A stretch of 64,000 nt of DNA, from the NCBI RefSeq assembly GCF_030684315.1, contig NC_081366.1, positions 38,230,078-38,294,077 of the forward strand, in the 5' to 3' direction. Below the pieces are notes generated by a model that was not told the origin of the DNA, searched no databases, and saw only the letters and a list, made by a program, of their open reading frames with translations. Positions 628 through 56,446 of the stretch are shown piece after piece (the first letter of the stretch is position 1; each line of letters starts with the position of its first letter). Position numbers and translations under genes: made by a program. The stretch is from Stegostoma tigrinum (taxonomy: Eukaryota).

Positions 628-715
628 CTCATCAGTCAGCAGAGTTGCAACAGCTCTCCCAATTTGATGATAAGCCATTGCCTTAGTTTTCGGCCCAAGG
701 AGAATGAATAGAAAC
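628..715 (-). CDS. SLC4 bicarbonate transporter (SLC4A4/SLC4A9-like), 6th coding exon in window; gene continues beyond position 1
   Basis: 88-nt exon, tttcag acceptor and gtaaac donor; encodes (R)[29 protein letters not shown], matching NBCe1 [30 protein letters not shown]; phase continues from exon 7111-7268. Confidence 0.93.
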
Positions 716-1087
716 CTGAAAGATAAAAGATAATGAGACATTATTTCTGAGTAGAGCTGCTCCAGACCCACTTTCTGTTTTAGAGTATTTGTGAGGTCTC
801 AACATCTATCTGAACATCAGAGGCACATTGCATGTGTGACCAGGGGCTTTTTGTAAAATCAACCAAGAAACACATTGAAACCTAATAACGAAATAACTTA
901 TAGTATACTTCCATGCTAGACATATGAATTACAGAAAATATAGCACAAACAGGAGCCATTTTGTTCATACAGGGGAATGTATGTCACTGGACAGTTATCC
1001 AGAAATCCACGCTATTGCTCAAGGATAATAAAATGTGAGGCTGGATGAACACAGCAGGCCAAGCAGCATCTCAGGAGCACAAAAGCT

Positions 1088-1115
1088 GACGTTTCGGGCC
1101 TAGACCCTTCATCAG
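1088..1115 (-). ncRNA. minimal type I hammerhead ribozyme motif (PLE family A)
   Basis: Reverse complement reads CTGATGA-A-GGGTCTAGGCCC-GAAACGTC. Confidence 0.75.
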
Positions 1116-1339
1116 AGAGGGGGATGGGGGGAGGGAACTGGAATAAATAGGGAGAGAGGGGGAGGCGGACCGAAGATGGAGAGCAAAGAAGATAGGTGGA
1201 GAGGGTGTAGGTGGGGAGGTAGGGAGGGGATAGGTCAGTCCAGGGAAGACGGACAGGTCAAGGAGGTGGGATGAGGTTAGTAGGTAGCTGGGGGTGCGGC
1301 TGGGGGTGGGAGGAAGGGATGGGTGAGAGGAAGAACCGG

Positions 1340-2926
1340 TTAGGGAGGCAGAGACAGGTTGGACTGGTTTTGGGATGCAGTGGGTGGGGGGGAAGAGCTG
1401 GGCTGGTTGTGTGGTGCAGTGGGGGGAGGGGATGAACTGGGCTGGTTTAGGGATGCAGTGGGGGAAGGGGAGATTTTGAAACTGGTGAAGTCCACATTGA
1501 TACCATATGGCTGCAGGGTTCCCAGGCGGAATATGAGTTGCTGTTCCTGCAACCTTCGGGTGGCATCATTGTGGCAGTGCAGGAGGCCCATGATGGACAT
1601 GTCATCAAGAGAATGGGAGGGGGAGTGGAAATGGTTTGCGACTGGGAGGTGCAGTTGTTTGTTGCGAACTGAGCGGAGGTGTTCTGCAAAGCGGTCCCCA
1701 AGCCTCCGCTTGGTTTCCCCAATGTAGAGAAAGCCGCACCGGGTACAGTGGATGCAGTATACCACATTGGCAGATGTGCAGGTGAACCTCTGCTTAATGT
1801 GGAATGTCATCTTGGGGCCTGGGATGGGGGTGAGGGAGGAGGTGTGGGGACAAGTGTAGCATTTCCTGCGGTTGCAGGGGAAGGTGCCGGGTGTGGTGGG
1901 GTTGGAGGGCAGTGTGGAGCGAACAAGGGAGTCACGGAGAGAGTGGTCTCTCCGGAAAGCAGACAGGGGTGGGGATGGAAAAATGTCTTGGGTGGTGGGG
2001 TCGGATTGTAAATGGCGGAAGTGTCGGAGGATAATGCGTTGTATCCGGAGGTTGGTAGGGTGGTGTGTGAGAACGAGGGGGATCCTCTTGGGGCGGTTGT
2101 GGCGGGGGCGGGGTGTGAGGGATGTGTCGCGGGAAATGCGGGAGACGCGGTCAAGGGCGTTCTCAATCACCGTGGGGGGGAAGTTGCGGTCCTTAAAGAA
2201 CTTGGACATCTGGGATGTGCGGGAGTGGAATGTCTTATCGTGGGAGCAGATGCGGCGGAGGCGGAGGAATTGGGAATAGGGGATGGAGTTTTTGCAGGAG
2301 GGTGGGTGGGAGGAGGTGTATTCTAGGTAGCTGTGGGAGTCGGTGGGCTTGAAATGGACATCAGTTACAAGCTGGTTGCCTGAGATGGAGACTGAGAGGT
2401 CCAGGAAGGTGAGGGATGTGCTGGAGATGGCCCAGGTGAACTGAAGGTTGGGGTGGAAGGTGTTGGTGAAGTGGATGAACTGTTCGAGCTCCTCTGGGGA
2501 GCAAGAGGCGGCGCCGATACAGTCATCAATGTACCGGAGGAAGAGGTGGGGTTTGGGGCCTGTGTAGGTGCGGAAGATGGACTGTTCCACGTAACCTACA
2601 AAGAGGCAGGCATAGCTGGGGCCCATGCGGGTGCCCATGGCCACCCCCTTAGTCTGTAGGAAGTGGGAGGAGTCAAAAGAGAAGTTGTTGAGTGTGAGGA
2701 CGAGTTCCGCTAGGCGGATGAGAGTGTCGGTGGAGGGGGCCTGGTCGGGCCTGCGGGACAGGAAGAAGCGGAGGGCCTTGAGGCCATCTCCATGCGGAAT
2801 GCAGGTGTACAGGGACTGGACGTCCATGGTGAATATGAGGTGTTGGGGGCCAGGGAATTGGAAGTCCTGGAGGAGGTGGAGGGCGTGGGTGGTGTCACGG
2901 ACATAGGTGGGGAGTTCCTGGACCAA
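1340..2926 (-). CDS. PLE reverse transcriptase + GIY-YIG endonuclease, N-terminally truncated
   Basis: 528-aa ORF; the listed start is an internal TTG and the frame is open up to the truncation point. Confidence 0.8.
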   Translation of the reverse strand: MVQELPTYVRDTTHALHLLQDFQFPGPQHLIFTMDVQSLYTCIPHGDGLKALRFFLSRRPDQAPSTDTLIRLAELVLTLNNFSFDSSHFLQTKGVAMGTRMGPSYACLFVGYVEQSIFRTYTGPKPHLFLRYIDDCIGAASCSPEELEQFIHFTNTFHPNLQFTWAISSTSLTFLDLSVSISGNQLVTDVHFKPTDSHSYLEYTSSHPPSCKNSIPYSQFLRLRRICSHDKTFHSRTSQMSKFFKDRNFPPTVIENALDRVSRISRDTSLTPRPRHNRPKRIPLVLTHHPTNLRIQRIILRHFRHLQSDPTTQDIFPSPPLSAFRRDHSLRDSLVRSTLPSNPTTPGTFPCNRRKCYTCPHTSSLTPIPGPKMTFHIKQRFTCTSANVVYCIHCTRCGFLYIGETKRRLGDRFAEHLRSVRNKQLHLPVANHFHSPSHSLDDMSIMGLLHCHNDATRRLQEQQLIFRLGTLQPYGINVDFTSFKISPSPTASLNQPSSSPPPTAPHNQPSSSPPPTASQNQSNLSLPP

Positions 2927-3338
2927 AGGGGAGAAAATGGAGTCCAGATAGGTGGAGATGAGTTCGGTGGGGCAGGAGCAGGCTGAGACGATGGGTCGAC
3001 CAGGGCAGGCAGGTTTGTGGATTTTGGGAAGGAGATAGAAACGGGCTGTGCGGGGTTGGGGAACAATGAGGTTGGAGGCTGTGGGTGGGAGGTCCCCTGA
3101 GGTGATGAAGTCATGAATGGGGCTGTGGGTGGGAGGTCCCCTGAGGTGATGAGGTCATGAATGGAACCTGGACCTCCCACCCACAGCCTCCAACCTCATT
3201 GTTCCCCAACCCCGCACGGCCCGTTTCTATCTCCTTCCCAAAATCCACAAACCTGCCTGCCCTGGTCGACCCATCGTCTCAGCCTGCTCCTGCCCCACCG
3301 AACTCATCTCCACCTATCTGGACTCCATTTTCTCCCCT

Positions 3339-4925
3339 TTGGTCCAGGAACTCCCCACCTATGTCCGTGACACCACCCACGCCCTCCACCTCCTCCAGGA
3401 CTTCCAATTCCCTGGCCCCCAACACCTCATATTCACCATGGACGTCCAGTCCCTGTACACCTGCATTCCGCATGGAGATGGCCTCAAGGCCCTCCGCTTC
3501 TTCCTGTCCCGCAGGCCCGACCAGGCCCCCTCCACCGACACTCTCATCCGCCTAGCGGAACTCGTCCTCACACTCAACAACTTCTCTTTTGACTCCTCCC
3601 ACTTCCTACAGACTAAGGGGGTGGCCATGGGCACCCGCATGGGCCCCAGCTATGCCTGCCTCTTTGTAGGTTACGTGGAACAGTCCATCTTCCGCACCTA
3701 CACAGGCCCCAAACCCCACCTCTTCCTCCGGTACATTGATGACTGTATCGGCGCCGCCTCTTGCTCCCCAGAGGAGCTCGAACAGTTCATCCACTTCACC
3801 AACACCTTCCACCCCAACCTTCAGTTCACCTGGGCCATCTCCAGCACATCCCTCACCTTCCTGGACCTCTCAGTCTCCATCTCAGGCAACCAGCTTGTAA
3901 CTGATGTCCATTTCAAGCCCACCGACTCCCACAGCTACCTAGAATACACCTCCTCCCACCCACCCTCCTGCAAAAACTCCATCCCCTATTCCCAATTCCT
4001 CCGCCTCCGCCGCATCTGCTCCCACGATAAGACATTCCACTCCCGCACATCCCAGATGTCCAAGTTCTTTAAGGACCGCAACTTCCCCCCCACGGTGATT
4101 GAGAACGCCCTTGACCGCGTCTCCCGCATTTCCCGCGACACATCCCTCACACCCCGCCCCCGCCACAACCGCCCCAAGAGGATCCCCCTCGTTCTCACAC
4201 ACCACCCTACCAACCTCCGGATACAACGCATTATCCTCCGACACTTCCGCCATTTACAATCCGACCCCACCACCCAAGACATTTTTCCATCCCCACCCCT
4301 GTCTGCTTTCCGGAGAGACCACTCTCTCCGTGACTCCCTTGTTCGCTCCACACTGCCCTCCAACCCCACCACACCCGGCACCTTCCCCTGCAACCGCAGG
4401 AAATGCTACACTTGTCCCCACACCTCCTCCCTCACCCCCATCCCAGGCCCCAAGATGACATTCCACATTAAGCAGAGGTTCACCTGCACATCTGCCAATG
4501 TGGTATACTGCATCCACTGTACCCGGTGCGGCTTTCTCTACATTGGGGAAACCAAGCGGAGGCTTGGGGACCGCTTTGCAGAACACCTCCGCTCAGTTCG
4601 CAACAAACAACTGCACCTCCCAGTCGCAAACCATTTCCACTCCCCCTCCCATTCTCTTGATGACATGTCCATCATGGGCCTCCTGCACTGCCACAATGAT
4701 GCCACCCGAAGGTTGCAGGAACAGCAACTCATATTCCGCCTGGGAACCCTGCAGCCATCTGGTATCAATGTGGACTTCACCAGTTTCAAAATCTCCCCTT
4801 CCCCCACTGCATCCCTAAACCAGCCCAGTTCATCCCCTCCCCCCACTGCACCACACAACCAGCCCAGCTCTTCCCCCCCACCCACTGCATCCCAAAACCA
4901 GTCCAACCTGTCTCTGCCTCCCTAA
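3339..4925 (+). CDS. PLE reverse transcriptase + GIY-YIG endonuclease, N-terminally truncated
   Basis: 528-aa ORF, mirror of 1340-2926; YIDD catalytic motif intact. Confidence 0.8.
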   Translation: MVQELPTYVRDTTHALHLLQDFQFPGPQHLIFTMDVQSLYTCIPHGDGLKALRFFLSRRPDQAPSTDTLIRLAELVLTLNNFSFDSSHFLQTKGVAMGTRMGPSYACLFVGYVEQSIFRTYTGPKPHLFLRYIDDCIGAASCSPEELEQFIHFTNTFHPNLQFTWAISSTSLTFLDLSVSISGNQLVTDVHFKPTDSHSYLEYTSSHPPSCKNSIPYSQFLRLRRICSHDKTFHSRTSQMSKFFKDRNFPPTVIENALDRVSRISRDTSLTPRPRHNRPKRIPLVLTHHPTNLRIQRIILRHFRHLQSDPTTQDIFPSPPLSAFRRDHSLRDSLVRSTLPSNPTTPGTFPCNRRKCYTCPHTSSLTPIPGPKMTFHIKQRFTCTSANVVYCIHCTRCGFLYIGETKRRLGDRFAEHLRSVRNKQLHLPVANHFHSPSHSLDDMSIMGLLHCHNDATRRLQEQQLIFRLGTLQPSGINVDFTSFKISPSPTASLNQPSSSPPPTAPHNQPSSSPPPTASQNQSNLSLPP

Positions 4926-5149
4926 CCGGTTCTTCCTCTCACCCATCCCTTCCTCCCACCCCCAGCCGCACCCCCAGCTACCTACTAACCTCATCCCACC
5001 TCCTTGACCTGTCCGTCTTCCCTGGACTGACCTATCCCCTCCCTACCTCCCCACCTACACCCTCTCCACCTATCTTCTTTGCTCTCCATCTTCGGTCCGC
5101 CTCCCCCTCTCTCCCTATTTATTCCAGTTCCCTCCCCCCATCCCCCTCT

Positions 5150-5177
5150 CTGATGAAGGGTCTAGGCCCGAAACGTC
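5150..5177 (+). ncRNA. minimal type I hammerhead ribozyme motif (PLE family A)
   Basis: CTGATGA core, stem II GGG/CCC, GAAA, palindromic ACGT stem III, GTC cleavage triplet ending at 5177. Confidence 0.75.
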
Positions 5178-7110
5178 AGCTTTTGTGCTCCTGAGATGCT
5201 GCTTGGCCTGCTGTGTTCATCCAGCCTCACATTTTATTATCTTGGAATCTCCAGCATCTGCAGTTCCCATTATCTCTGATACTATTGCTCAAGGATACAG
5301 GTTTGAATCCCACCATGGTCAAGTAGTGAAATTAGAATTCAATAAAAATTCTGGAATTCAAAATTAGCTCAATGGTGTTCATGTCAATTGCCTTAAAAAT
5401 CATCTGGTTCACTAACACCCTTTAGGGAATGAAATCTGCCATCCTTACCTGGTCTGACCTACATATGACTCCACAGCACAGTAATGTGGTTGACTCTGAA
5501 CTACCCTCTGGGCAATAAGGGATGGACAATAAGTGCTGGCTGAGCCAGCAATGAATGATGTGAAATAAAGCTATATCAGTGCTAGAATTTGTATAGTAAA
5601 ATATAATCAAGTTCGGTTTGGGAAAAAGTTTGAACAAGTGCAGGAGCAGATTACAAAATTTAACCCTGCCGAACAAAATTAATGCATAGCTTTACAAAGA
5701 AAAATGGCACCAATAAAAGTTTACCTTCCCTGTATTTTAGGCATATCATAACCCATTGTTTTTAGCATTTTCTACCATGTGAAATTGAAAGGTTGATCAT
5801 ATTACAATTGTTGATTGTTCTGAAGCTATTGCATGCATCATGTGTCTTTCATTGTTATGTAAAAGAAAGACTGGCAACTGTGGAAACAGAGCTCTGTAAA
5901 GCAGAACAACATTTGACTAGGAGCTGTCAAAATCAGAAACTCACTTGGAAATCAATTTAAACATAAGCATAAAACTTATTGGCCTTTCTCTTCCAATAAG
6001 GAGATAATTGTTACTGCAGTATAGATAAGAGATATGCACAGGAGCCAAGCAGAAGTCCCAAAGCGGCTGACTCTGCCTTATAATGGTCAGGAAGTTGAAG
6101 ATTCTGCCTAAAAAAAGGTCCCCAACTCTGAGTTATTGTTGGAGACTTCAAATGGTTCCTGCTCATGTACTTAAATAGTCATGCAGGAAAACCAAGAATA
6201 ATCAAAAGCTGCTCTGATCCCTGCGTAACTACAAAACCACCCCCTACAACTCACCACCGCTCTCTCCCACTGATTAAGTGTTCCCAAACTCCCATAGACA
6301 CTGATACCTGCCCTAGGTCAACCTGTGAGCCCTCCCCCACCCGACCCCTGCTCTGCCACAAGGACCTCACCCAAGTTACTGCCCAGGACCCCTGACAAAA
6401 GAAGGAGACTCACAACCCAATACCACTTGCCCAAAATATACCCCAGCACACAGCCTGACCTAACCGCCAACACACCCAAAAAGATGATCCCCGATGTCCC
6501 GCAATCCGATGCCCCCGATTTGTCACCTCTCCCGACCTGAAGCCCCACCCAAATTTGACCACTAACATTTCTCCCACCAGCTCCTCACCTGACATTGCGC
6601 CTGACATTCCCCTCCTCCTCCTGTCCTAACATCCCCCCAACTTGACCACCAATCTCCATCAGCTCAGACTCAAACCCTGACACCCCGATGTCTATGTTGC
6701 CCCGCTCTACTCTGAAAGGTTTTCCTCCACTATGGTAGGAGAAGCATGGCCAGGAGCCTTCCAGCCAGGAAGTCCCCAGCAAAAGGTGCTGTGATCCCAC
6801 AGTCACTCAACTTTTCTTTGTTTTTGCACAATATGGTGAAAAACGGCATCACTAAAATCCTGTGGGATCCTGCCCTGTTCCCAGCTGACCATGAAAAACT
6901 CATGGAGTTTAATATGTTGGGCACAGTCACCATGCCTCAAATAGCCTTGCCACAACCACTGCTTGGACTCATACTGGCAGCGTGTCATCCAGGACCATGC
7001 AGAGAATTGACAGAGAACCACATCCCAAAGCAAGTCAACGGGAAATGGTGATTTCATTTGTGATTAAAATAATATTTGCAACAATAACTGATATAATACA
7101 CTATCCTTAC

Positions 7111-7268
7111 CTGGTTGGTAGTGGGACCTCCGTAAGAGCCCCTAGGATCATTGCCTGCTTTAATCGTACAAAGGCAACAAATGGCTTCTCCAAAAAATCT
7201 ACTTCACCCACAAGCACATTTGCAGCTTCAGCACCTTCAGGGATCTGCTTCTTGAAAGTATTTTTCAA
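7111..7268 (-). CDS. SLC4 transporter, 5th coding exon
   Basis: 158 nt, ttttag/gtaagg; [52 protein letters not shown](R), the conserved SLC4 N-terminal cytosolic core. Confidence 0.95.
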
Positions 7269-13435: not shown

Positions 13436-13789
13436 TCTTAGGCCCTCACATCACATTTTATTCTGATCACATCAAAACCATGAAATTTCACTTTCAATCA
13501 AAAATTAAGGAATACTGTTGTTCAATATAACTAACAACCTGATAATGAGTTGGTGGGTTGTGAGAATTTGCTGGCATTGCTGGCTATTAGACAGACATAT
13601 AGATGGTCTGGTCTATATCATTTTGCAAGCTCAGGGCGCTGAGGCCAATGATAGTATCCTAGCAATTTCCTCAGCTGAATCAGAGTGTCAGCTAAGAATC
13701 AAGCCTGAGATATTTTGGCTTGTATATCGTAATGTTTAATAGTTATTCATCAGACAATCATACAAGAAAAGTTTCCACGGCAAAATGAA

Positions 13790-15132
13790 GAGATAGTAAG
13801 AACTGCCAATGCTGGAGTCAGAGATAACACAGTGTGGAGCTAGAGGAATACAGCAGGCCAGGCAGCATCAGAGGAGCAGGAAAGTTGACATTTCAGGTCG
13901 GGACCCTTCTTCAGAAATGTGGAGAGGTAAGGGAGCTCAGAAATAAATAGATAGAGGACGGGTGGGATGGGGAGATAGGCGGGATGGTGATAGGTGAGTG
14001 GAGATAGAGAGTGGTGAGGGTTGGTCAGTGAGGTGGGGGGGACAGGTAGGTGGGAGAAAAGAGGGACAGGTTGTGTTAGGCCAAGGAGGTGAGGAAGAGT
14101 GGGAGGGTTAGACATGGGATGAGGCCGGGGGTGGGGAGATTTTGAAACTGGTGAAATCCACATTTAGGCCATCAGGCTGTAAGCTCCCAAGGTGGAATAT
14201 TGGGTGTTGCTCCTCCAGTTTGTGGGTTGTGTCTTTGTGCCACTGGAGGAGGCCCAGGATGGACATGTAACCCAGGGAGAGGGAGGGGGAGTTAAAATGG
14301 TTGGCGACCAGAAGGTGTTGTTGTTTGTCCTGAACAGAATGCAGATGCTCGACAAAATGGTCTCCGAGCCCCTGCTTGATCTCACCGATGTAGAAGACAC
14401 CACATCGGGAGCAGCAGATACAGTAGACCAAGTTGATGGATGTGCAGGTGAGCCCATGTCTGATGTGGAAGGTGTGTTTTGCGCCTTGGATGGAGGTGAG
14501 GGGGGGAGGTGTAGGGGCAGGTGCAGCACTTCCTGCGTTGCAGGGAAGGCGCAAGGGGTGGCGGGGTTAGTGGGGAGTGTGGAGTGGATGAGGGGATCAT
14601 GGAGAGGCTATGAAAGCTTTTGTACAACATCTGCACTCTGTTTGCGACAAACGACAACACCTTTAGGCCACAATCCATTTCGACTCCCCCTCCCACTCCA
14701 TAGGTGACATGTCCATCTTCAGCCTCCTCCAGTATCACAATGACACTACCTGCAAACTGGAGGAGCAGCATCTCATGTTCCACCTCAGGAGCCTACAGCT
14801 CGATGCCCTAAATGTGGATTTCACCAGTTTTAAAATCTCCCCACTCCTAGCCTCATCCCATGACCAACCCGGCTTCTCATCCCCCCTTCTTTGACCTGAC
14901 ACAATCCGCCCCTCCCACCACACTGACCAATCCCCACCACTCCCTACCTGCACTCAACTATCACCATCCTACCTACCGTCCCCAGCCTGACCCCATCTCT
15001 TCCTATTTACTTCTGAGCTCCCTTGCCCTCCCACCATATCTGAAGAAGGGACCTGACCCAAAACATCAACTTTCCTGCTCCCTGATGCTGCCTGTCCTGC
15101 TGTGTTCCTCCTGCTCCACACTGTGTTATCTC
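13790..15132. mobile_element. older inverted pair of PLE 3' fragments (minus arm 13790-14607, plus arm 14608-15132)
   Basis: Both arms carry degenerate GIY-YIG sequence (LVYCICCSRCGVFYIGE; MSIFSLLQYHND) and degenerate hammerhead motifs at about 13886-13914 and 15040-15068. Confidence 0.9.
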
Positions 15133-15255
15133 ATTAAGATAACCTTGCATTTTAAACTTATAAAAGTTAAATTTCATTGAAGTGTTTCCTGCGCTATCTT
15201 GATTTGTGTCAATCTAATGTAATCATTAGTTGCTTAACTACTTATTCATAATTAC

Positions 15256-15416: not shown

Positions 15417-18214
15417 CTAGGAATGAATCACAGAATGGGAATTAGAAAACTGTGCAATTCAAGGACTATATTTTAGCTCAATAAATTATACATAACACAC
15501 AAATTATAATGAACTGCCACTTATATAGTATCATTATCTTACAGCCATTCTAAGACAATTCAGAAGCGGGAAAATGTGCAATGGGCCAAAGAAAAAGCTA
15601 TTATGAAGATATCAAAAGCTATGTCAAGGAAATGGGTCTTAAGGAAATGTTTGAAGGAGGGGAGGAAATTAGTTTAAAGAAGGAATGCCAAAGTCTGGCA
15701 TCAAGTCAACTGAAAGCATGACCACTAATGGTGGATTGAGAAGCATGACCAATTTGTGGGGGATGTTTATTTTTTAAATTTGATCTTGAAACATGGGCAT
15801 CACTGGCTCATTATTGCCCACCCCTAATTGGCCTGGAAAGGTGGTAATGAATTGTGTTCTTTTATTGCTGCAGCCCCGAGGTGTCAATGCAACCACAGTG
15901 CTGTTGCGAAGAATATTCCTATAATTTTGACCCAGTGACAGTAGAAGAATGACGCTATAGTTCTGAAATTGAATGTGTGCAAGAGGGAAACCTGGTTCAT
16001 GAGACAGAGAATTCCAAATTTTAGCAAAATTTAAATATGACAAATTTTGGATTTGAGGTACAATAGCTTTAGGATGCACTGATAGCCATGAAATTATTTG
16101 AACAATGAAACTTGGATGTGACATGACTGTAAGGGAAGTGTTTCAGAAGGAAGTGGGCTAAAATAGGAGCAGAAGTGAATAATTTTACATGCAGTCCTTA
16201 TAATGTGGAGGATATGGATTGGAAGCTCAGCCTGAGATGGAACAACATAAAGGATATGCTCTTCTGGTTTAGATTGTCACTGACTGAGAAGGGATATGGA
16301 GTGGGTGGCAGGGATAAGTATTTAAATTGGGAACAATCGATGATTGCTTGATAGTTCCTAATACTTAGCTGGATGAGGCTAAGGCTCATTCAAAACAGAG
16401 AACATGAAATTTCTGGGAAAGGGGGGAGCTGGAGTTATAAAGGGGTGAGTTGGTGGTTGCAAAAGTTAGGGATGAAAAGGTACTAGGCTGGCTCTGTAAG
16501 ATGTTCGTGCTTCCTAGATAACAAGGTGTAGAGCTGGATGAACACAGCAGGCCAAGCAGCATCTTCGGAGCAGGAAAGCTGACATTTTGGACCTGCTTCC
16601 TTGTGCTTTTCCAGGAGATTTGACCTCAGCAATGCAATCTTCCAAGCATCACACAGCCCTGCTAGTGTGTCAGTGTCCTGGTAACTGTGAGGAGGAGTTG
16701 TACAGTGGAAGGTCTGAGATACAATACTTTAAGGATATGAAATATGCATGGGCCTGAAAAATAGGAGACTAGACACTGTGTTCATGGTACGGAGATTTCC
16801 TATTTCATCAGGATCTCATGGAGACTGATGTCTCAATCCAACAGTAGTGTCACTAATGTAGTGGCAGCCATTCCCCTAGTTATGATGTTGCCATCATCGA
16901 GTCTCTGCCAATCTGCACTGGTGAGGCAGCGAATACTGCTGGCTAAACCCATATGATTGGCAGATCAAACTCTCACCTCTGGAACCCATCCCAGCCCTAA
17001 TTAGGCACCAAATCTGAAGGTGACCTACTAACAGACTCCTTCCTGTTTGGTCCCCAAAGATAAATTTGATGCTTGAAAAATTTCCTAGACCAGTAGATCT
17101 GGCCTTAATGCCAGACAAAATGTAGTGGGTCAAGGAAGGTGGTGGTTCAGTAGAGGTATGGGATCCCCATACATGTTGAAGCCAATTTCATATTTAAAGA
17201 AGTTGTAAAATGGAGGGCACTTTGATAATCAAGACGAGGCAGCTGTTGTTATCCCCATGGAATTATTACAGCATAGAAGTCAGCCACCATGTCTGCGCTG
17301 GTCCTCCAATAGACTGTATGTTGCTCCCCCACCCTCTCCCTAGACCCTAACACCTTCATTATCTAAAGATACTTAGAGAAGTTATAAAATTTAACAGTAT
17401 AGAACGAATCAATGCTTGCCCAATGTATCTGCACGGCCAAGAAACAAATCACCCAGTCTAATCCCATTTTCCTATGTTTTATTGGGAGGGGGGTGGTTTC
17501 AGGTGCATATCCAGTTAGATCCTTTATTCGGTATCCTTAGGAATCAGTATTTGCCTTCAAAGAGAAGCTGTTGTTGGAAATTCTGATCTACGTCCAAAGT
17601 TAACAGCAGAATCATGTGGGTTTAGTAAGTGACAGGCATTGCACAACATCAAGATTAAAAAAGACACCTCTAGCAAGCACATGATACCATTTTTAAGAAG
17701 TTATGTAGAGTTTTCCATCTTTCTGCCATTCATTTTGAACTCCGAGAATTAAGTCCTATTTGATATGGATCTGGCACATTTCCAGCTCATTTTGAGCCCA
17801 ATTGGTACCTGGCAAATGGCAGCAGTATGGTTGAACTCCCAAGCCATTGGCTGAATCGTATTTTTTTGGCTAATTGTGAACTGCATTGATGTTTTTAAGA
17901 GGGATTCTCGCTCTAAGACATGGTGAGATTTCTCAGCATATCTATTGGAATGGTGAGGCTACCATAAAGGACTCCTTCTTAACTTCTCCATCACCTGAGG
18001 TGCAGTGACCCTTGAGTCAAACCACCACCAGCTGTCTCTTTCTCTCTAATAAGAGAGCAGCCCTATGGTGCAGTAGGACTATGGAGATTCTATTTATGGT
18101 GATAACCCTGACAATGCCCTAATTAATCTCCCTGTGGAGTTTGGTGAGTACGAGTTCCTTTCATAATAGACAGTGGTCTGTCACGCTTGAACATCTGAGC
18201 CAGAGTGACTCTTG

Positions 18215-23600: not shown

Positions 23601-24253
23601 CCAATCTGACCATTTCAAGTTCTACAATTATACTTACATATCTTGCTCAAATTTTGAAATTGATCCCTGCACACCAAAATCTACCTATTAATATATATTA
23701 GAAAAAGCAAGGGTCTGATACTGGCTTCACAGTAGGGTTAAACTGATCCCTGGAAAACTCCACAACAATCTTGCTCCAGCCCAAAAAATAGCCATTAACC
23801 ATTACTCTGTTTTCTGTAAATGAAATGAATTCAGTCTATTTATGTCATGTTCAGGTGCTTCAGGCATATCTTTCAAAGATGATCACATAATGATTAAGAA
23901 TGAACATTTGGTTTGCTTTATCCCTTTACAATAACTGCACCAAGTTTAATTGTAGCACCTTCACTGTTACCCTCTCTGAGATCAGTAAATGTATTATAGG
24001 CATGATTGTACAGGAACAATTCTAATTGCATGGCTGAAAAGCAATTCACTAAGTATTTGACCTACCTTTAATTAGCTTTATGACTTTTTTTGATTTGCTT
24101 TAATAATTTTACTTTTGAGATATATGTATCATTTTCATTGTTAAAGATTATGCTTAGCCATAATAATGAGAAATCATTTTTAAAATGTATGTTTCTGGTT
24201 GTGCAGGGAGCACCAGAGTCACAAAAGTAGGAACCAGTGAAGTACTGTTTACT

Positions 24254-26580
24254 TAATCAGTGATAATGGGAACTGCAGATGCTGGAGAATCCAAGACAAC
24301 AAAATGTGAGGCTGGATGAACACAGCAGGCCCAGCAGCATCTCAGGAGCACAAAAGCTGATGTTTCGGGCCTAGACCCTTCATCAGAGAGGGGGATGGGG
24401 TGAGGGTTCTGGAATAAATAGGGAGAGAGGGGGAGGCGGACCGAAGATGGAGAGAAAAGAAGATAGGTGGAGAGGAGAGTATAGGTGGGGAGGTAGAGAG
24501 GGGATAGGTCAGTCCAGGGAAGATGAACAGGTCAAGGAGGTGGGATGAGGTTAGTAGGTAGGAGATGGAGGTGCGGCTTGGGGTGGGACGAAGGGATGGG
24601 TGAGAGGAAGAACAGGTTAGGGAGGCAGAGACAGGTTGAACTGGTTTTGGGATGCAGTGGGTGGAGGGGACGAGCTGGGCTGGTTGTGTGGTGCAGTGGG
24701 GGGAGGGGACGAACTGGGCTGGTTTTGGGATGCGTTGGGGGAAGGGGAGATTTTGAAGCTGGGTAAGCCAACATTGATACCATTGGGCTGCAGGGTTCCC
24801 AAGTGGAATATGAGTTGCTGTTCCTGCAACCTTCGGGTGGCATCATTGTGGCACTGCAGGAGGCCCATGATGGACATGTTATCTAAAGAATGGGAGGGGG
24901 AGTGGAAATGGTTTGCGACTGGGAGGTGCAGTTGTTTATTGCGAACCGAGCGGAGGTGTTCTGCAAAGCGGTCCCCAAGCCTCTGCTTGGTTTCCCCACT
25001 GTAGAGGAAGCCACACCGGGTTCAATGAATGCAGTATATCACATTGGCAGATGTGCAGGTGAACCTCTGCTTAATATGGAAAGTCATCTTGGGGCCTGGG
25101 ATAGGGGTGAGGGAGGAGGTGTGGGGGCAAGTGTAGCATTTCCTGCGGTTGCAGGGGAAGGTGCCCGGTGTGGTGGGGTTGGAGGGCAGTGTGGAGCGAA
25201 CAAGGGAGTCACGGAGAGAGTGGTCTCTCTGGAAAGCAGACAAGGGTGGGGATGGAAAAATGTCTTGGGTGGTGGGGTCGGATTCTAGATGGCGGAAGTG
25301 TCAGAGGATGATGCGTTGTATCCGGAGGTTGGTGGGGTGGTGTGTGAGAACGAGGGGGATCCTCTTTGGGCGTTTGTGGCGGGGGCGGGGTGTGAGGGAT
25401 GTGTTGCGGGAAATGTGGGAGACGCGATCAAGGGTGTTCTCGACCACTGTGGGGGGAAAGTTGCGGTCCTTGAAGAACTTGGACATCTGGGATGTGCGGG
25501 AGTGGAATGCCTCATCGTGGGAGCAGATGCGGCAGAGGTGGAGGAATTGGGAATAGGGGATGGAATTTTTGCAGGAGGGTGGGTGGGAGGAGGTGTATTC
25601 TAGGCAGCTGTGGGAGTCGGTGGGCTTGAAATGGACATTAGTTACAAGCTGGTTGCCTGAGATGGAGACTGAGAGATCCAGGAAGGTGAGGGATGTGCTG
25701 GAGATGGCCCAGGTGAACTGAAGGTTAGGGTGGAAGGTGTTGGTGAAGTGGATGAACTGTTCGAGCTCCTCTGGGGAGCAAGAGGCGGCGCCGATACAGT
25801 CATCAATGCAACGGAGGAAGAGGTGGGGTTTGGGGCCTGTGTAGGTGCAGAAGAGGGACTGTTCCACGTAACCTACAAAGAGGCAGGCATAGCTGGGTCC
25901 CATGCGGGTGCCCATGGCCACCTCCTTTGTCTGTAGGAAGTGGGAGGAATCGAAAGAGAAGTTGTTGAGGGTGAGGACGAGTTCGGCTAGGCGGATGAGG
26001 GTGTCGGTGGAGGGGGACTGGTTGGGCCTGCGGGACATTAAGAAGCAGAGGGCCTTGAGGCCATCTGCATGCGGAATACAGGTGTTTAGGGACTTGACGT
26101 CCATGGTGAAAATGAGGTGTTGGGGGCCAGGAAATTGGAAGTCCTGGAGGAGGTGGAGGGCGTGGGTGGTGTCACGGATGTAGGTAGGGAGTTCCTGGAC
26201 CAAAGGGGAGAAAATGGAGTCCAGATAGGTGGAGATGAGTTCGGTGGGGCAGGAGCAGGCTGAGACGATGGGTCGACCAGGGCAGGCAAGTTTGTGGATT
26301 TTGGGAAGGAGATAGAAACGGGCCGTGCGGGGTTGGGGAACAATGAGGTTGGAGGCTGTGGGTGGGAGGTCCCCTGAGGTGATGAGGTCATGAATGGTGT
26401 TGGAGATGATGGTTTGGTGCTCGGGTGTGGGGTCATGATCGAGGGGGCGGTAGGAGGTGGTGTCGGAGAGTTGGCGTTTGGCCTCGGCGATGTAGAGGTC
26501 AGTGCGCCATACTACCACTGCGCCACCCTTGTCTGCGGGTTTGATGGTGAGGTTGGGGTTGGAGCGGAGGGAGCGGAGGG
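24254..26580 (-). mobile_element. Penelope-like element family A, 5'-truncated, non-inverted, inactivated
   Basis: ORF 25301-26518 plus downstream fragments; YIDD changed to CIDD and in-frame stops; includes the upstream IKPADKGG motif; TSD ctgtttact at 24245-24253 and 26581-26589; hammerhead variant at 24359-24386. Confidence 0.95.
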
Positions 26581-27690
26581 CTGTTTACTGCCTGTTTTAC
26601 ACTAGGCACTAGTTTGGGAAAGGGTTCAAAATTCATAGGGAAGAAATGTTGGATAGACTATTGGTTCCTAAAGTGACAAAGCTCTGAGACCAGATAAAAT
26701 GCATCGAAGGAAATGAGAAAGAGGTAAGAGAGGGAATTGTGTGGACACTGACCATTTCTTTCAGTCTTCCCTTGGCTCAGGAATGACAAGACTGGAGAAT
26801 TGCACAATTCACATCCTTGTGCAAATAGGATTGTAAAGATAAGCCCAGCAAATAGACCAGTCTGCTGGCGTTTTTAAAAAAGGCTTGCATTTATATTGCG
26901 CCTTTTACAAACAACATCTATTTAAAAAGGGCTTTACAGTGAATTAAGTTTTGTATTGCCATGTAGTCACTGTATTGGAGAGGCACAGAGAGTAGCATCC
27001 CTACCTCAGAGGCCCTGGGTTCAAAGCCCACTTCAGGACTTGATGGCCACAGAACCTGCATTCATAACATAGACGAAACGTTTGAATATTAACTTGTATC
27101 TCCTACTAATAGACCGTGGTAAAAGCAGGGCAGATTTCTGATCAGATCAGCCATGTGATTGCTAGAAGTTGAAACCTCTGTCATAGTTCCAGACCATAAC
27201 ATACGTGTAAAAGTATATCTTGTCAGAGCAACTCAAACCCCATGGGGTCTGGTTGGCTCAGTCGGTTGTTGTAAATCAAACTGGAGTGAATAGAATGGGT
27301 TTGATGCCCATTCCAACTGGGGTGAACACAGGACCTGCCCCCTGTGGTGAAAATTGTGGCAGTGTTGGTCAGACCTTCCTTCAGTCAGAGAACTTGAGAA
27401 GACTCACTGTTTTGGTGCACATCCACTATAAAAAGACAGTGGGATATTACGACAGCAAAGTCACCACTGTCTGTTTTACATCCAATGCAAAAGTTAAAAA
27501 TCCACCCCAAGTTAAACTGTACTTCTTTCAAAGCCAGACATATGTGAAATTAACTACGACATGGCATTAGATATCAAAGCTCATTCTGAAGTTAAATATA
27601 AAATGCTGTACTGGTTCCTGATCCAGAGTCCAAGGAGACAGGTGTCTGATGGAGAAATGACAGGACAAGGAGGCTGACAAGCATGAGAAG

Positions 27691-29033
27691 CAGAGATAAT
27701 GGGAACTGCAGATGCTGGAGAATCCAAGATAACAAGGTGTGAAGCTGGATGAACACAGCAGGCCAAGCAGCATCTCAGGAGTACAAAAGTTGACGTTTCA
27801 GGCCTAGACCCTTCATCAGAAAAGGGGGATGGGGAGAGGGCTCTGAAATAAATAGGGAGAGAGGGGGAGGCGGACCAAAGATGGATAGAGGAGAAGATAG
27901 GTGGAGAGGAGAGTATAGGTGGAGAGCTGGGGAGGGGATAGGTCAGTCCGGGGAGGACAGACAGGTCAAGGAGGTGGGATGAGGTTGGTAGCTGGGAAAT
28001 GGAGGTGCAGCTTGAGGTGGGAGGAGGGGATAGATGAGAGACAGATCGGGTTAGGGAGGCGGGGATGAACTGGGCTGGTTTTGTGATGCAGTGGGGGAGG
28101 GGATGAACTGGGCTGGTTTTGGGATGCGGTGGGGGAAGGGGAGATTTTGAAGCTGGTGAAGTCCACATTGATACCATTGGGCTGCAGGGTTCCCAAGCGG
28201 AATATGAGTTGCTGTTCCTGCAACCTTTGTTGGCATCATTGTGGCACTGCAGGAAGCCCACGATGGACATGTCGAATAAGGAATGGGAGGGGGAGTTAAA
28301 ATGGTTCACGACTGGGAGGTGCAGTTGTTTATTGCGAACCGAGCAGAGGTGTTCTGCGAAGCGGTCCCCAAGCCTCAGATCAACCAAGTGGAGGCTTGCA
28401 GACCGCTTTGCAGAACACCTCTGCTCGGTTTGCAATAAACAGCTGCACCTCCCAGTCGCGAACCATTTTAACTCCCCCTCCCATTCCTTAGACAACATGT
28501 CCATCATGGGCCTCCTGCAGTGCCACAATGATGCCACCAAAGGTTGCAGGAACAGCAACTCATATTCTGCTTGGGAAACCTGCAGCCCAATGGTATCAAT
28601 GTGGACTTCACAGGCTTCAAAATCCCCCACACCCCCACTGCATCCCAAAACCAGCCCAGCTCGTCCCCTCCCCCCACTGCATCACGAAACCAGCCCAGCT
28701 CATCCCCACCTCCCTAACCTGTTCTTCCTCTCACCTATCCCCTCCTCCCATCTCAAGCTGCACCTCCATTTCCCAGCTACCAACCTCATCCCGCCTCCTT
28801 GACCTGTCCGTCCTCCCCGGACTGACCTATCCCCTCCCCACCTATACTCTCCTCTCCACCTATCTTCTCCTCTATCCATCTTCGGTCCGTCGGCCCCTCT
28901 CTCCCTATTTATTTTAGAACCCTCTCCCCATCCCCCTCTCTGATGAAGGGTCTAGGCCCGAAACGTCAGCTTTTGAGCACCTGAGATGCCGCTTGGCCTG
29001 CTGTGTTCATCCAGCTTCACACTTTGTTATCTT
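27691..29033. mobile_element. inverted pair of PLE family A 3' fragments (minus arm to 28376, plus arm from 28382)
   Basis: TSD agcatgagaagcag at 27680-27693 and 29034-29047; hammerhead motifs at 27792-27819 (-) and 28940-28967 (+). Confidence 0.93.
28940..28967 (+). ncRNA. minimal hammerhead ribozyme motif (PLE family A)
   Basis: CTGATGAAGGGTCTAGGCCCGAAACGTC, identical to 5150-5177. Confidence 0.7.
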
Positions 29034-30164
29034 AGCATGAGAAGCAGTTTAGGTCACGACAGATAAATCATAATCAGTCAAATTTGGATAATCTGAAGCT
29101 CCAGGTGTAGCAAAGTTGTCAGCTATTCCCACTGGCAGAATAGGAAATACAGGATGTCTGAGACAAGCTAAGGTTTCAGACTGTTAACTCTGGATTTGCT
29201 AAACTCGTGCATTGTTGTCATATGATCTCACTCACCAATCTGCGAAGAGTTACATCACATCAGAGTGCAAAATCATGGACAGGGATGCAATAATTGCTGT
29301 AAAAGGATCCCATGCACATTCTCAATGCATATTCTCTGAAATGCATTTTTAACCTTGATCAAACCAGACTGTTTTAGTGTGATTTTGCAAATTGTTTTTT
29401 ATTGTTTAATGTACAAATATGTATTGGTGGAAAGCGAAGCAAGGAATGTCATGCTGCTATGGCCTACACCAACATTAATGCTACCCGAAAGCTACCACAG
29501 CCAGTGTCAGGCAAGTCCAAAAGGTTACGTTGCTTTGTGAATGTTAAGATACAACCAGTGTAGTATAAGACTGACAAAACCATTTGGATAACCTCCAGCA
29601 TTTTGGAAATGTGGTCTGGAAATTGGGCAAAATATAACAACAGAAGTAAAGGAAGCATCTGATGATGATCCTGAAGAGTCCAATAAATACACACGTGGTC
29701 AACAGCCTGTTTCCCTGGCTACAGATGGTAACACCTATGAGATAATCCAGGATTTCGCACCATAGCACAGAAACACAGAAAACATGCTTGACTCGATGGC
29801 AGACTCACCACAAGAGAATAAGCTAAGTAGAAAAAGGGCATTGAAATTTTTTCCAGACTTTAACACAGCATTTTTCAATGTCTTTTACTGCATAGGGTGA
29901 GGTCACAGTAAGGCAAGTAAAAATAAAGGCATTTTTCCACATACTTGCTGCATTACCAAGTTCTCATTTTTATTAAGCATAGAGCACAACTGTAGGTAAA
30001 TAAGGTTACACGAAGGCTTTCTCAGCTATCTCGAAGCTCCAATTAACCCAAATTTGCGGGCAGGATCCCTGTAATCATAATTTTACTTCTTGTAAAGAAG
30101 TAGTGACAGTGCCTTAATGGATGTTTTGGAGAAAGCCAGGAGAGGCAGAAGTGATAGTCATGTC

Positions 30165-40533: not shown

Positions 40534-41117
40534 CTGTTTGGACAGAAAGAAAGCTAGTAAATAATTCAGAATCAAAACAGTCCAAATAATTGTTAGATAC
40601 CAAAAACAGAACCAATTTCTTAGTTCCTTGCTTCAGGCAGGTTTGACCCACAGCGCCATGACCTCTATCATAGAGAGGCCAAGGAAGCAGATGCCACATG
40701 AAAAAAATTGGTGCCATCACATGCAGTTCAATGTGATCCACACAGCATTCCAGTCGATTAAGCTAACTAGCCCACACAAAAAGTCACAATTGCTTTAGCA
40801 AAATACATTTTCTGTTCATATTGGGTTTTGGAGTGAAGGATAGTGATGTTGGGAACTCCTCTGCCACATAGCTGACCAGGAATCTCATCTGTTATTGCAA
40901 CAAGTTACAATTTGATAATCAAGCTAGTTGGCCAGTAAAGAAATGCATTTTTCTGGTCCACCAAATTTTAGAGTGAAACTTGAATCTGGAGCTTACAGTT
41001 CAAAGGCAGTGATGACAGTCAAGTCATCAAGATACACCTGAGAATAAGTCTAAGTGATAATGAATTTTTTGGGTCATTTTATCATCTACACAGAATAAAA
41101 TTAGAAATCTGTCTCAC

Positions 41118-41311
41118 CTGTCACTGTACAGTGATCTTTCAAAGAACTGTACAGGATGTTCAGCCTCTTGAATTTTGGAGCACAGTGGCTTAAGCTGTGC
41201 CCGAACCCTACTCAGGCAAGCATAGGTTTGGAATGTATATGCCCATCTACTTGGCTTGTCATAGAGCATCTGGAGGAGATTGCCACCACTTTTCTGTGAT
41301 GTTGTAAGTTC
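41118..41311 (-). CDS. DCK2: deoxycytidine kinase (dCK2-type), exon 3
   Basis: 194 nt, taaaag/gtgaga; [64 protein letters not shown](R), with the ERS motif. Confidence 0.96.
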
Positions 41312-41657
41312 CTTTTAGGGAAATAAAAAGAGAGTCAGAAACCAGACAAAGTTGAGAAATGTCACCAAAATCTATTTAGCACAAGTTCAAAGTAAGCCTA
41401 ATCCAATAGCTCTGATTGAACAATGATCTCTCAACCATACATTTTCTTTTCAGTATTCAGGCAAGCATTGAAATGACTAATGCAAGAGCTTGCAGCCTAA
41501 CCAATTAAACTAAGTGCCGAAAAAAAAATCAAAAGATTGCAATGAGACACTGAAAATGTATTCGTTTTGTCCCTAACTGGAAAAAAAAAGAAACTATTTT
41601 ACAAAAAAACTTTGAAAGCAGGGATTGAAATCACCTGTGGCCATTTTGTGGGATATT

Positions 41658-43924: not shown

Positions 43925-45200
43925 AGTAATCAGAGACAACACAGCGTAGAGCTGGAGGAACAAAGCAGGCCAGGCAGCATCAGAGGAGCGGGAAGTTGAC
44001 GTTTCGGGTCGGGATCCTTCTTCTGAAATAGGGCGGGGAAAGGGAAAGCCGTTCCCTCGCTGTTTGGTCTTTTTCCATAAAGAACTACTGTAACTAAATT
44101 TGAGTTACAATTGCAGGCAGGGCGTGGTGGGGATTTGTCAGTGAGGGGGGTGGGGCGGATCGTTTGGAGAGATAGTAAGACCTGCCGATGCTGGAGTCTG
44201 AGCTAACACAGTGTAGAAGTGGATGAACACAGCAGGCCAGGCAGCGTCAGAGGAGCAGGAATGTTGCTTGGTCAGCTGTGTTCATCTAGCACCACACTTT
44301 GTTATCTCTGTTTCAGGTCAGAACCTTTTTTTCAGAAAATGAGAAATGAAAGAACACGGACAGGTTGGGTCAGGTCCCGGAAGCGTCAATGAGAAGGAGG
44401 GTTGGTCATAGGATGAGGCCTGGGATGGGGAGATATTGAAAGTGGTGAAATCCACATTTAGGCCATTGGGAGGTGTGGCATTCAACCTCTGGCGAGATAG
44501 AGATCAGTTCCCAGAAAACCACAGTACCACCCCTTTAATAGGTTTGATAACAAAACTGAGGTTCAATCTGAGAGAACAGAATGCAGCAAGTTCAGAAAGA
44601 GGCAGGTTAGAGTGAGTGAGAGGAATGGGTAAATTGAAGTGGTTGAAGCTATGCAGGCACAATCAATAAAAAGATTCTGGTGTTGAGGTGCCAGTGTTGG
44701 ACTGGGATGGACAAAGTTAGAAGTCTCTCAACATCAGGTCATAGTCCAACAGGTTAATTTAAAATCACAAGCTTTCGGAGTGCTGTTCCTTCATCAGGTG
44801 AAGTCTGATGAAAAGCTAAGGGAGGCTAGAAGGCCAAAAGGAAGAATCTAGTTGGAAAGAATACTGGAGACAGATTAAAAGGTTTCACTCAAGACTCGGT
44901 GTGAGAGAGATGTTCGCCACTGAAGTGGGTATGGAACTGGAGATGATGGAAGAGTTCAGCATCATTCCAATTTTGAAATTCACTCAGGTACAGGGGAAGA
45001 CTTGCTTAGAACAGATCATTCAAGGTACTGTGTCTACAGGGCAAGCAGTAGGAATAGAAGCAGGGATGTGTCAGAGGTAAGTGAAGGGAGATCTGGAGGT
45101 TGGTACCCAGGATTTCTTGGATTTGCAATCCTTCATATGTATGAGGAAAGGGGGTTGAAATGAGCGTTGAAATGAGACTTGTGACCAGGACAGCTTTAAA
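43925..45200 (-). mobile_element. nested cluster of degenerate PLE fragments upstream of the DCK promoter
   Basis: Family A tail and hammerhead at about 43997-44025, mini inverted element 44168-44310, DKGG-region remnant near 44490-44560, family C insert 44680-44812. Confidence 0.7.
44769..44797 (-). ncRNA. minimal hammerhead motif of a different PLE family (C)
   Basis: Reverse complement CTGATGA-A-GGAACAGCACTCC-GAAAGCTT with palindromic AAGCTT stem III. Confidence 0.55.
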
Positions 45201-46580: not shown

Positions 46581-48029
46581 AGTGAGATGTAAAAGTAAGT
46601 ATTGGGTAATACCTGATTGCTTTCTATTTGTCTTAAATTCAATGAAGGTGAATCAGGGAGAAAAACAAATGGAAATCCCATTGGACACAAGATCTTCAGG
46701 GTGAGCATTTCTGGGTGAGAAGTGGTGGTTGATTAATCACCAATACAAAAGTAATATACCATGCCACTGGAAATCTGAAATAAAACCAGATAATGCTGGA
46801 AATGCTCAACAACAGAGTTAAAGTTTTAGTCAAAGTTTTTCACTCCCCAGACACTGCCTGAAATGCTGAGCAATTCCAATATTTTCTGTTTTCAAATTCT
46901 TTTAAACAGAACATTTTTTTCTTCTCTTATCCCATTACCACTTCCTTTGGCCTTATCTCATGAATTCTTTTGTAATTTAATCTTTCATGTCTTCCACCCT
47001 CTCACATATTTCCCAATTTTTCTACTTACATGGCCTGTTTCTAGCCACATGACGACAAGACTATAACCCCTCCCCTCCTTTTCTTGCTAAACTTCTTATA
47101 TTTCTTGGTCACAATGAATGGCCACAAACTTGAAACCTTAACTCTGGTTCTTTCTTTACAGTTGCTTTTTGACCCGCTGAGTTTTTCCAGCAACTTCTGT
47201 TTTTGTTCTTGTCCTGTACTTAGTCATTTTGATCTTGAAGTGATTGCAATGGGTACTTCAACATTACTTGCTATAGTGTCTTCAATTGCATCAAGCTTTG
47301 TTCTGTTGCCTTCTGCCAAAAAAACTAGCAGCAGAACTTTAAGCCCCCTCAATCCTTGTCTTTGGAGCTCATGGACCCAGTATGAACCCACCCTCCATTA
47401 ATCTGCTTCTAGCTCTTTTGCCCAAATCACAATCATTTCTATTATGCTCTGCGGACTTTGTGTGCTGCTCCTTATATTATTACTATTACTATGAGATATT
47501 TTGCATGTAAAAGCTTTTGTGTACATGCATATTGATGTTGATCACTTCCATTACCAGAGATAAATTAGGTCTCAAAAGGAACATTCCTCGTGTACATTTT
47601 CCTAATTTTCAAGGATTTTTTCCTCATTATCTACTGGTTATCATCATCTGAAACTATTTAATTTTGTAAAGGAATATCTTTAGAAGTCTCCAACTGGCTA
47701 ACAAAGGCAAAGCAAGTGACACTTCAAAACAAATATATAAATTTAGATATAATCATAGATTTTATTCACCTGGCAAGCAAAGTTTGTGGCATGATTTTTT
47801 TTGTGGATTTTGGCAACAAGTTGAGGATTATCAAATCAGCCATGATATCATTGAATGGCAGAGCAGACTCAATTGGCCAAATGGCCTACTTCAGCTGCAA
47901 CATCTTACAATCAATCACAATGTTGTTAGATCACATTGCAGATCTCAACTGGTTCCAATGTTGCTCCATCACAGCTGATTTTACCTACCATGTTGTCATG
48001 GAAGGAAGAAATGACATCGAACAGCGCTG

Positions 48030-48415
48030 GTGGGCACAAAAACATAGGTTGCTGGAAAAGCTCAGCAGGTCTAGCAGCGTCTGTGAAGAAAAAATCAGAT
48101 TAATGTTTTGGGTCCGTTGACCCTTCCTTAGAACAGCTGGTGGCAGCTGATTTTCTCCGGTATAGGCTGTTATTATACTGTGTCTGCTCATGTGGTTGAA
48201 TGCCATAGTAAAACTGATGAAAACAATATATATAGAAAGCAGAGTTAACGTTTTGACTCTGGTAATTCTTCATCAAAACTCCAAGTCAGAGTCGCCAAAC
48301 TCAAAATGTTAACTCTGCTTTTTCTTCAGTGATGCTGCCAGACCTGCTGAGTTTTGCCAGCAATTTCTGTTTCTTTTTCAGATCTCTAGCATCTGCAGTT
48401 GTTTGTTTTATTTTA
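48030..48415. mobile_element. PLE family B tails in inverted arrangement
   Basis: Minus tail 48030-48135, inverted gagttaacgttttga / tcaaaatgttaactc core 48242-48315, plus tail to 48415. Confidence 0.7.
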
Positions 48416-56260: not shown

Positions 56261-56446
56261 AATTGCTGAGATAGCCAAGCTCTGAAAACTTATGATTTCT
56301 GGGATCTTTGGGGTCCTTGTCTCTATTAAATGAAGGGAGTGCCAAAATAGTGTTTTGTGTAATGTCAGAAATTGAATGAACTCTATTTCAGAAAATATGA
56401 GGAGAGCAGTGTCCAAAAGATAGAAATCAAGGTTACTAACAAGTCA

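Follow-up and report, generated by a model that had tools for sequence, protein, structure and literature searches.

Anatomy and possible origin of a nearly perfect head-to-head pair of Penelope-like elements in an SLC4-family intron of Stegostoma tigrinum

Penelope-like elements (PLEs) commonly carry an inverted, 5'-truncated copy by their 5' end, and a tail of 30–40 nt is often found on only one side of such structures (PMC8557442, PMC3846280, PMC8969392). Head-to-head is the most frequent arrangement in PMC3846280, which also describes long inverted structures in Pen3 and Pen4, and PMC8557442 states that the origin of tandem and inverted PLE insertions is unresolved. For PAc, a Poseidon-clade element of Anolis carolinensis, it was reported that both target strands are cut and extended in vitro, that reverse transcriptase (RT) starts at two adjacent internal sites bracketing the tail, and that the protein is a predicted dimer (PMC11167929). 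The accessible part of that paper does not discuss inverted insertions, and its sole use of the word "inverted" concerns a blocking nucleotide. Here we analyze a 64,000-nt stretch of the Stegostoma tigrinum genome (assembly GCF_030684315.1, contig NC_081366.1, forward-strand positions 38,230,078 to 38,294,077; hereafter, the window), which contains a palindrome of two PLE copies at 1012–5297, within an intron of an SLC4-family bicarbonate transporter gene. This palindrome is one genuine retrotransposition event of an endonuclease (EN)-bearing PLE, whose product is a dead-on-arrival head-to-head pair. It probably arose from a single cut whose two 3' overhangs each primed RT, one at each of two start sites, with coupled termination.

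Architecture of the palindrome

The right arm (3170–5241) is the reverse complement of 1024–3095 over 2072 bp with exactly two mismatches (1506/4759 and 3047/3218), and the mirrored arms are 74 nt apart. These coordinates, lengths and mismatches had been given in the original prediction, made from the sequence without database searches, and all of them were reproduced. The same is true of the single flanking direct repeat, a 16-bp target-site duplication (TSD) at 1012–1027 and 5282–5297 that has no further occurrence in the window; none of 1493 random position pairs gave an exact repeat of at least 12 bp in the same search. One TSD surrounds both arms and none is found in the middle of the palindrome, which supports the earlier view of a single insertion unit. 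The insertion is composed as follows (window coordinates).

1012–1027, plus strand: left TSD copy; the left arm begins within it, sharing its last 4 nt (1024–1027) as microhomology at the priming end
1024–3120, minus strand: left arm, a 5'-truncated PLE with no 3' tail; on the template, its 5' end lies 25 nt beyond that of the right arm
1340–3094, minus strand: left-arm open frame with RT core, linker zinc finger and GIY-YIG; N-terminal third absent
1088–1115, minus strand: left-arm minimal hammerhead-like motif, found by pattern, with no Rfam match
3121–3164, minus strand: 44-nt tandem re-copy of 3077–3120 with one mismatch
3165–3169, no strand: 5-nt junction filler between the arms
3170–5281, plus strand: right arm, a 5'-truncated PLE with 3' tail (template 204–2320 of copy B, see below)
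3171–4925, plus strand: right-arm open frame; RT with intact YIDD, C-x4-C-x2-C linker and GIY-YIG; no DKG, about 340 N-terminal residues absent
4794–4910, plus strand: three 39-nt tandem units at the frame end, mirrored in the left arm
5150–5177, plus strand: right-arm minimal hammerhead-like motif, found by pattern, with no Rfam match
5242–5281, plus strand: 40-nt 3' tail, right arm only
5282–5297, plus strand: right TSD copy, 16 bp

The arms are asymmetric at both ends. Thus, the mirror symmetry proposed earlier holds for the 2072-bp arms but overlooked the 40 nt by which the right arm extends past the mirror point (a tail that the left arm lacks), the 25 extra 5' bases of the left arm and the 44-nt re-copy. 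Comparison with a related single copy in the window (copy B) revealed that the 74-nt spacer is mostly element-derived, consisting of 25 nt more of the left arm (3096–3120), the re-copy and five other bases. On copy B coordinates, the left arm spans template positions 179–2281, and each arm contains element sequence absent from the other. Since neither arm contains the other, plain fold-back copying of the first cDNA, one of two origins suggested in the original prediction, fails.

With copy B as the comparison, the derived base at 3047/3218 is in the left arm (a CpG transition) and that at 1506/4759 is in the right arm, so that there is one private change per arm and the other arm then agrees with copy B. 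A third mismatch (3109/3153) separates the 44-nt re-copy from 3077–3120: the inner copy is derived and the outer copy has the copy B state. The two copies end on one and the same template base. At each end of the insertion, an arm runs in antisense from the 3' end of the TSD copy there, as dual priming requires; the overlap is 4 nt on the left and 0 nt on the right.

Identity of the element

Both arms matched the RT family PF00078 (RVT_1; E = 2e-5, just below the curated cut-off), and the C-terminal part of the right arm matched the GIY-YIG family PF01541 (E = 1.9e-4; 22.1 bits versus a cut-off of 22.6). The open RT and GIY-YIG frames reported previously were therefore recovered, with RT in both arms and GIY-YIG tested on the right arm, at scores just under the cut-offs. 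RT is followed by a GIY-YIG endonuclease at the C terminus within one open frame, and homologues of this frame carry both Pfam families. Protein matches at E of 1e-10 or better accounted for 1669 of the 5673 candidates, and the top named homologues were from carpet sharks: Stegostoma (94%), Rhincodon (89%) and Chiloscyllium (78%). The RT catalytic motif YIDD is intact in the palindrome frame, the linker motif C-x4-C-x2-C is present, and two cysteines between the VVY and YIG half-motifs and two downstream histidines are conserved in the alignment, which corresponds to the CCHH-type GIY-YIG. PMC8557442 describes the CCHH zinc finger of GIY-YIG by two cysteines between the half-motifs and gives the linker zinc finger definition for Neptune and Nematis. 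Judged by these motifs, the element is a C-terminal-EN PLE of the Neptune/Nematis type, in agreement with the PLE identity assigned at first sight. The Penelope/Poseidon clade was ruled out, as it is defined without a linker zinc finger and this motif is present in the palindrome frame. Neptune is likelier than Nematis because a survey of 35 species found Neptune and Poseidon in five vertebrate classes, with no Nematis listed in its accessible text (bioRxiv 10.64898/2026.07.22.740005). A PDB search with a 14-sequence profile gave no match, TERT included, at E up to 1.

The longest aligned homologues have 889–924 amino acids, and both arms lack roughly the first 340 residues, or about one third of the protein. 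Thus, neither arm can encode the whole protein and the copy is non-autonomous. The DKG motif upstream of the RT core is kept in copy B and was truncated off both palindrome arms. Neither a direct pseudo-long terminal repeat (pLTR) from a partial tandem nor a full-length open reading frame is present in the insertion; their absence marks the copy as non-autonomous and has no bearing on the family class.

A pattern search detected a minimal hammerhead-like core that includes stem II in both arms, and likewise in related copies. It fits the description of the minimal hammerhead in PMC4209133, with the numbering being our own. A search of the whole window against Rfam yielded seven matches at E up to 1, none of which was a hammerhead. 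The microRNA matches among them, over 3026–3241, were discarded because they merely reflect the palindrome.

Public gene models named for host genes (a Hypanus kinase-domain isoform and a Biomphalaria XIAP) match the PLE frame over 77–88% of the frame's length. They are probably cases of misannotation or exonisation.

Related copies and the origin of the pair

A profile of the PLE 3' end gave 18 matches in the window, including three head-to-head pairs in addition to the palindrome. We refer to the palindrome as A, to the single copies as B and F, and to the other head-to-head pairs as C, D and G.

24245–26589 (element 24255–26580): copy B, single tailed copy of 2.3 kb, 94.5% identical to the A arms; 9-bp TSD; two stops; DKG kept
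27680–29047: pair C, head-to-head; 14-bp TSD; arms 7.5% apart; tail on left arm; 5' ends 9 nt apart; 5-nt filler
13789–15133: pair D, an older head-to-head pair from a more distant subfamily, between SLC4 exons; arms 18% apart; tailed arm about 230–245 nt longer at its 5' end
56435–56612: pair G, miniature; 12-bp TSD; a tailed 3' end, joined at its hammerhead stem to an inverted piece of 30 nt
16508–16601: copy F, single tail-less 3' end of 78 nt; 8-bp TSD

In all four counted pairs, exactly one arm carries the tail. Tail-less 3' ends lie at template positions 2281–2283 (A, C, D and single copy F) and tailed ones at 2317–2321 (A, B, C, D and G). The motif ATTATCT is located at 5236 and 5269, adjoining both 3' end points, with no other occurrence in the arm, and the six aligned 3' ends retain a close variant at each of these positions. 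Single tailed (B) and single tail-less (F) copies exist, each with a TSD, suggesting that each start site works alone. The 5' ends of the two arms are offset by 25 nt in A, 9 nt in C, 9 nt in G and about 230–245 nt in D. Under independent truncation, the probability of so small an offset is 0.0002–0.017 for A and 0.006–0.01 for C across four assumed length distributions. The 39-nt unit at the frame end occurs in three copies in A and B and in one fewer in both arms of C, which share a deletion of 39 nt and another, of 1 nt, in the EN region. Against A and B, the arms of C have 24 substitutions and two deletions in common; thus, both came from the same template type.

The geometry of the palindrome and its end points are read directly from the DNA. 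By analogy with the Poseidon-clade PLE studied in vitro, priming would have occurred from both overhangs, which is consistent with the earlier proposal that both ends of one staggered break were extended. The GIY-YIG endonuclease would nick the two strands 12–16 nt apart, as the TSDs suggest, and generate two 3' overhangs. Each overhang would then prime RT on element RNA, one at the tail end and the other 40 nt further in, both beside the same motif. The two products may be coupled if one broken RNA is copied twice (by a dimer, or successively with strand displacement); alternatively, the longer cDNA may snap back and its copy anneal to the short cDNA from the second nick. The polymerase would stop twice at the same template base, which would yield the 44-nt re-copy, and the ends would be joined with five filler bases. 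The two variants of coupling are inseparable here and about equally likely: the double stop at one base in A favors a physical RNA end, whereas pair G and the deletion common to both C arms favor snap-back.

A more specific, and at present doubtful, possibility is a "double-copy" reaction by which Neptune-type PLEs of sharks would often integrate: a ribonucleoprotein dimer would hold a single RNA at the two ATTATCT motifs (33 nt apart), use one start per nicked strand and copy the RNA twice to its broken 5' end. If true, this reaction would account at once for the existence of the tail, its restriction to one arm, the head-to-head arrangement and the agreement of the truncation points. It would also seed long perfect hairpins in host introns, which could silence the family or alter host splicing.

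It should be noted that several observations weigh against priming of both overhangs with coupled termination. The sample is four pairs from one window, and the count leaves out two more inverted arrangements at 43.9–44.5 kb (nested) and 48.0–48.4 kb (decayed), together with weak distant 3'-end matches at 23.1, 38.9 and 57.3 kb. In pair D the 5' ends are far apart and no TSD could be detected (its best repeat, 5 bp, is within chance). The inverted arm of pair G stops about 50 nt before the tail-less site, and its junction suits snap-back from a tailed cDNA. The TSDs of F and B are modest, as 34 and 9 of the 1493 random pairs, respectively, reach those lengths, and the length distributions in the truncation test were assumed. 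The tail-less arm is longer at the 5' end in only two of the four pairs, and we dropped a simple rule of a leading and a trailing polymerase, under which it always would be. In addition, start-site use was equal between strands in vitro (PMC11167929), which alone leaves the one tail per pair unexplained, and the element studied there is of the Poseidon clade, unlike the palindrome.

The alternative that survives best, although we regard it as unlikely, is self-priming or fold-back alone, on the first cDNA or an antisense template, after which EN would trim or resolve the product so that one arm loses its tail. Self-priming was argued for in PMC3846280, and in PMC8557442 the tail is explained by EN-mediated resolution. 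This scheme accounts for the matched 5' ends and the short loops with no added assumption; however, the loop in A and C belongs to the tail-less arm, which is unable to template the tail of the other arm, and an additional trimming at a fixed site would be needed. The tail matches the two RT start sites observed in vitro (PMC11167929), making a cleavage step unnecessary. Pair G does fit a snap-back (microhomology of 2 nt, loop of 7 nt), and the 1-nt deletion in the EN region of both C arms is what would be expected of a copied RT error. On the other hand, a single tail-less copy with a TSD exists (F), and folding of the left-arm cDNA end of A alone produced no stable stem for a snap-back (110 nt, -7.8 kcal/mol).

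It is quite improbable that two RNAs were copied independently at one cut, or that a second insertion came later at the 5' end of the first element and gene conversion kept the arms identical. Two RNAs, the other origin suggested in the original prediction, if truncated independently, fit poorly with 5' ends 25, 9 and 9 nt apart in three of the four pairs, although those of pair D are unmatched. The single TSD encloses both arms with none in the center, which argues against two events; the private change in each arm, with the other arm in the copy B state, and the occurrence of both single-arm forms in the window are in their favor. As to conversion, the older pairs have diverged by 7.5% and 18% between arms, so it does not hold the arms identical over time. 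In pair C, 18 of the 34 transitions are at CpG.

An assembly or sequencing artefact, in which one element was duplicated through a fold-back read or through mis-joining, is highly improbable. Near-identical inverted arms are hard to assemble, a difficulty noted for tandem and inverted PLE structures (PMC3846280, PMC8557442), and polishing may have raised the identity of the arms. However, the flanks differ and yet have the 16-bp TSD in common, the host intron and exons run on correctly on both sides, and the arms differ in their 5' ends, in private mismatches and, as expected biologically, in their 3' ends. Fold-back reads cannot account for the older, diverged pairs of the same anatomy. Finally, an L1-type twin-priming inversion was rejected, as the arms overlap over 2072 nt, poly(A) is absent and the endonuclease is GIY-YIG.

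At 43930–44466 there are two antisense PLE 3' ends, the second of which has a 42–47-nt sense, tail-less fragment within its hammerhead core region; this is either a nested insertion or a template switch. The best repeat in a TSD search around the copy at 43930–44046 was 5 bp, which is within chance. At 48027–48400, the 3' end of a distant PLE forms an old inverted pair, with about 160 nt of other sequence between its arms and an extra hammerhead-like core at 48248–48276. Four-base palindromes at the C and G junctions were considered too short to count.

Age, host gene and comparison with known systems

Among the pairs in the window, the palindrome is the youngest. Copy B has two stops, whereas the frames of A are open, and at the 39 amino-acid differences between A and B, A has the state commoner among homologues at 28, B at 8, and three are ties. 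With the epaulette shark mutation rate of 7e-10 per base per generation (PMC10587355), two mismatches correspond to 0.69 million generations (Poisson range 0.08–2.5 million, and wider still if the uncertainty of the rate is included); if the mismatches are RT errors, an age of zero is possible. Thus, of the earlier description as very young, the rank within the window stands, and the mismatches allow anything from zero to about 2.5 million generations. Current activity of the family, also claimed, is reduced to a possibility, given this wide range and open frames that lack about one third of the protein. The insertion may be polymorphic because the arm difference of 0.001 is below the nucleotide diversity of the epaulette shark, 0.002 (PMC10587355). 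Palindromes with long, similar arms and short spacers are unstable, but in eukaryotic cells fork stalling was no longer frequent with a spacer of 52 bp (PMC7999016), so that persistence with a 74-nt spacer is unsurprising.

The insertion adds 4270 nt to the host intron and its end is 296 nt from the 3' splice site. Both flanking exons match the Band 3 cytoplasmic domain and splice in frame.

716–7110, minus strand: host intron of the SLC4-family bicarbonate transporter gene, GT-AG, 6395 nt
628–715, minus strand: exon of the SLC4 family, downstream of the palindrome, with a Band_3_cyto match; in the PDB it best matches NBCe1, E = 2e-10
7111–7250, minus strand: SLC4-family exon upstream of the palindrome, splicing in frame to 628–715
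5282–5542, plus strand: older dispersed repeat that was the insertion target; its head is perhaps at about 972–1011, where the match is weak

The interrupted repeat, which we take to be a short interspersed element, had been said to read through once the insert is removed. The TSD plus right flank matched a profile of three other repeat copies (E = 2.5e-36), and for two of these three the empty site could be aligned pairwise across the junction, but the left flank alone was not significant in any of three designs, with 161/2000 and 491/2000 shuffles in one and 250/5000 shuffles and 457/5000 random 45-mers in another. The read-through suggested by these alignments is plausible, if weakly shown.

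Further SLC4-family exons are present on the minus strand at about 21.05–21.12 kb and 12.3–12.5 kb (the latter a weak match, E = 6e-4); exons for SLC4 profile positions 128–177 were not found among the frames scanned. The window also contains a deoxynucleoside-kinase exon (41117–41314, minus strand), an RRM exon (61911–62159, plus strand) and CpG islands near 43 kb and at 51–52 kb. The exon order (SLC4, deoxynucleoside kinase, RRM) resembles what we take to be the human arrangement, GRSF1-MOB1B-DCK-SLC4A4; the frames scanned contained no detectable MOB1 exon.

The SLC4 pre-mRNA could fold a 2-kb hairpin from the insertion. Located 296 nt from the SLC4 splice acceptor, such a near-perfect hairpin might have small-RNA, editing or splicing effects. 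A precedent for hairpin RNA comes from the Penelope element of D. virilis, whose new copies in transgenic D. melanogaster have long inverted repeats, with small interfering RNAs matching the inverted regions (PMC3681739); in the shark, the host is a vertebrate, the transcription would come from the host gene, and the hairpin is predicted.

In the literature covered, we found no explicit link of two start sites to one-tailed pairs and matched 5' ends, nor a repeated motif at both starts; coverage of subscription papers was thin, and this is no proof of novelty. Long young pairs can discriminate between models by asymmetry of the tail, agreement of the 5' ends, recurrence of a stop base and errors private to one arm, and four pairs in 64 kb suggest that the shark genome should hold many of them.

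In L1 twin priming, both target ends prime on element RNA and generate a 5' inversion within one TSD; the arms do not overlap, the 3' end is poly(A) and the nuclease is an apurinic/apyrimidinic endonuclease. L1 arms come from different parts of the RNA, whereas the palindrome arms copy the same 2 kb from starts 40 nt apart. PAc has a hammerhead upstream of two adjacent start sites that flank the tail, an order also seen for the candidate hammerhead-like motif of the palindrome element, and both of its target strands are cut and extended, as we suppose for the palindrome; however, it is a Poseidon-clade element with no linker zinc finger, and the accessible text reports no homology between the RNA start and the cut DNA (PMC11167929), whereas insertions of the palindrome family show overlaps of 0–4 nt. 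Pen2a/Pen2 of Adineta vaga, like the palindrome, has one TSD (9–10 bp there) around a unit with an inverted pLTR, and a tail on one inverted pLTR (PMC3846280). In Pen2a the inverted arm is 181 bp and self-priming on an antisense template was proposed, whereas each palindrome arm holds sequence that the other lacks. With canonical EN-bearing PLEs (PMC8557442), the palindrome shares a head-to-head inverted truncated copy, a one-sided tail of 30–40 nt, a C-terminal GIY-YIG domain and, in candidate form, a hammerhead-like motif near the 3' end. It differs from them in having no direct partial-tandem pLTR or full-length copy and in its nearly equal arms of about 2.1 kb. Its anatomy is thus of the published PLE kind, and this unusually clean copy narrows down how PLEs integrate.

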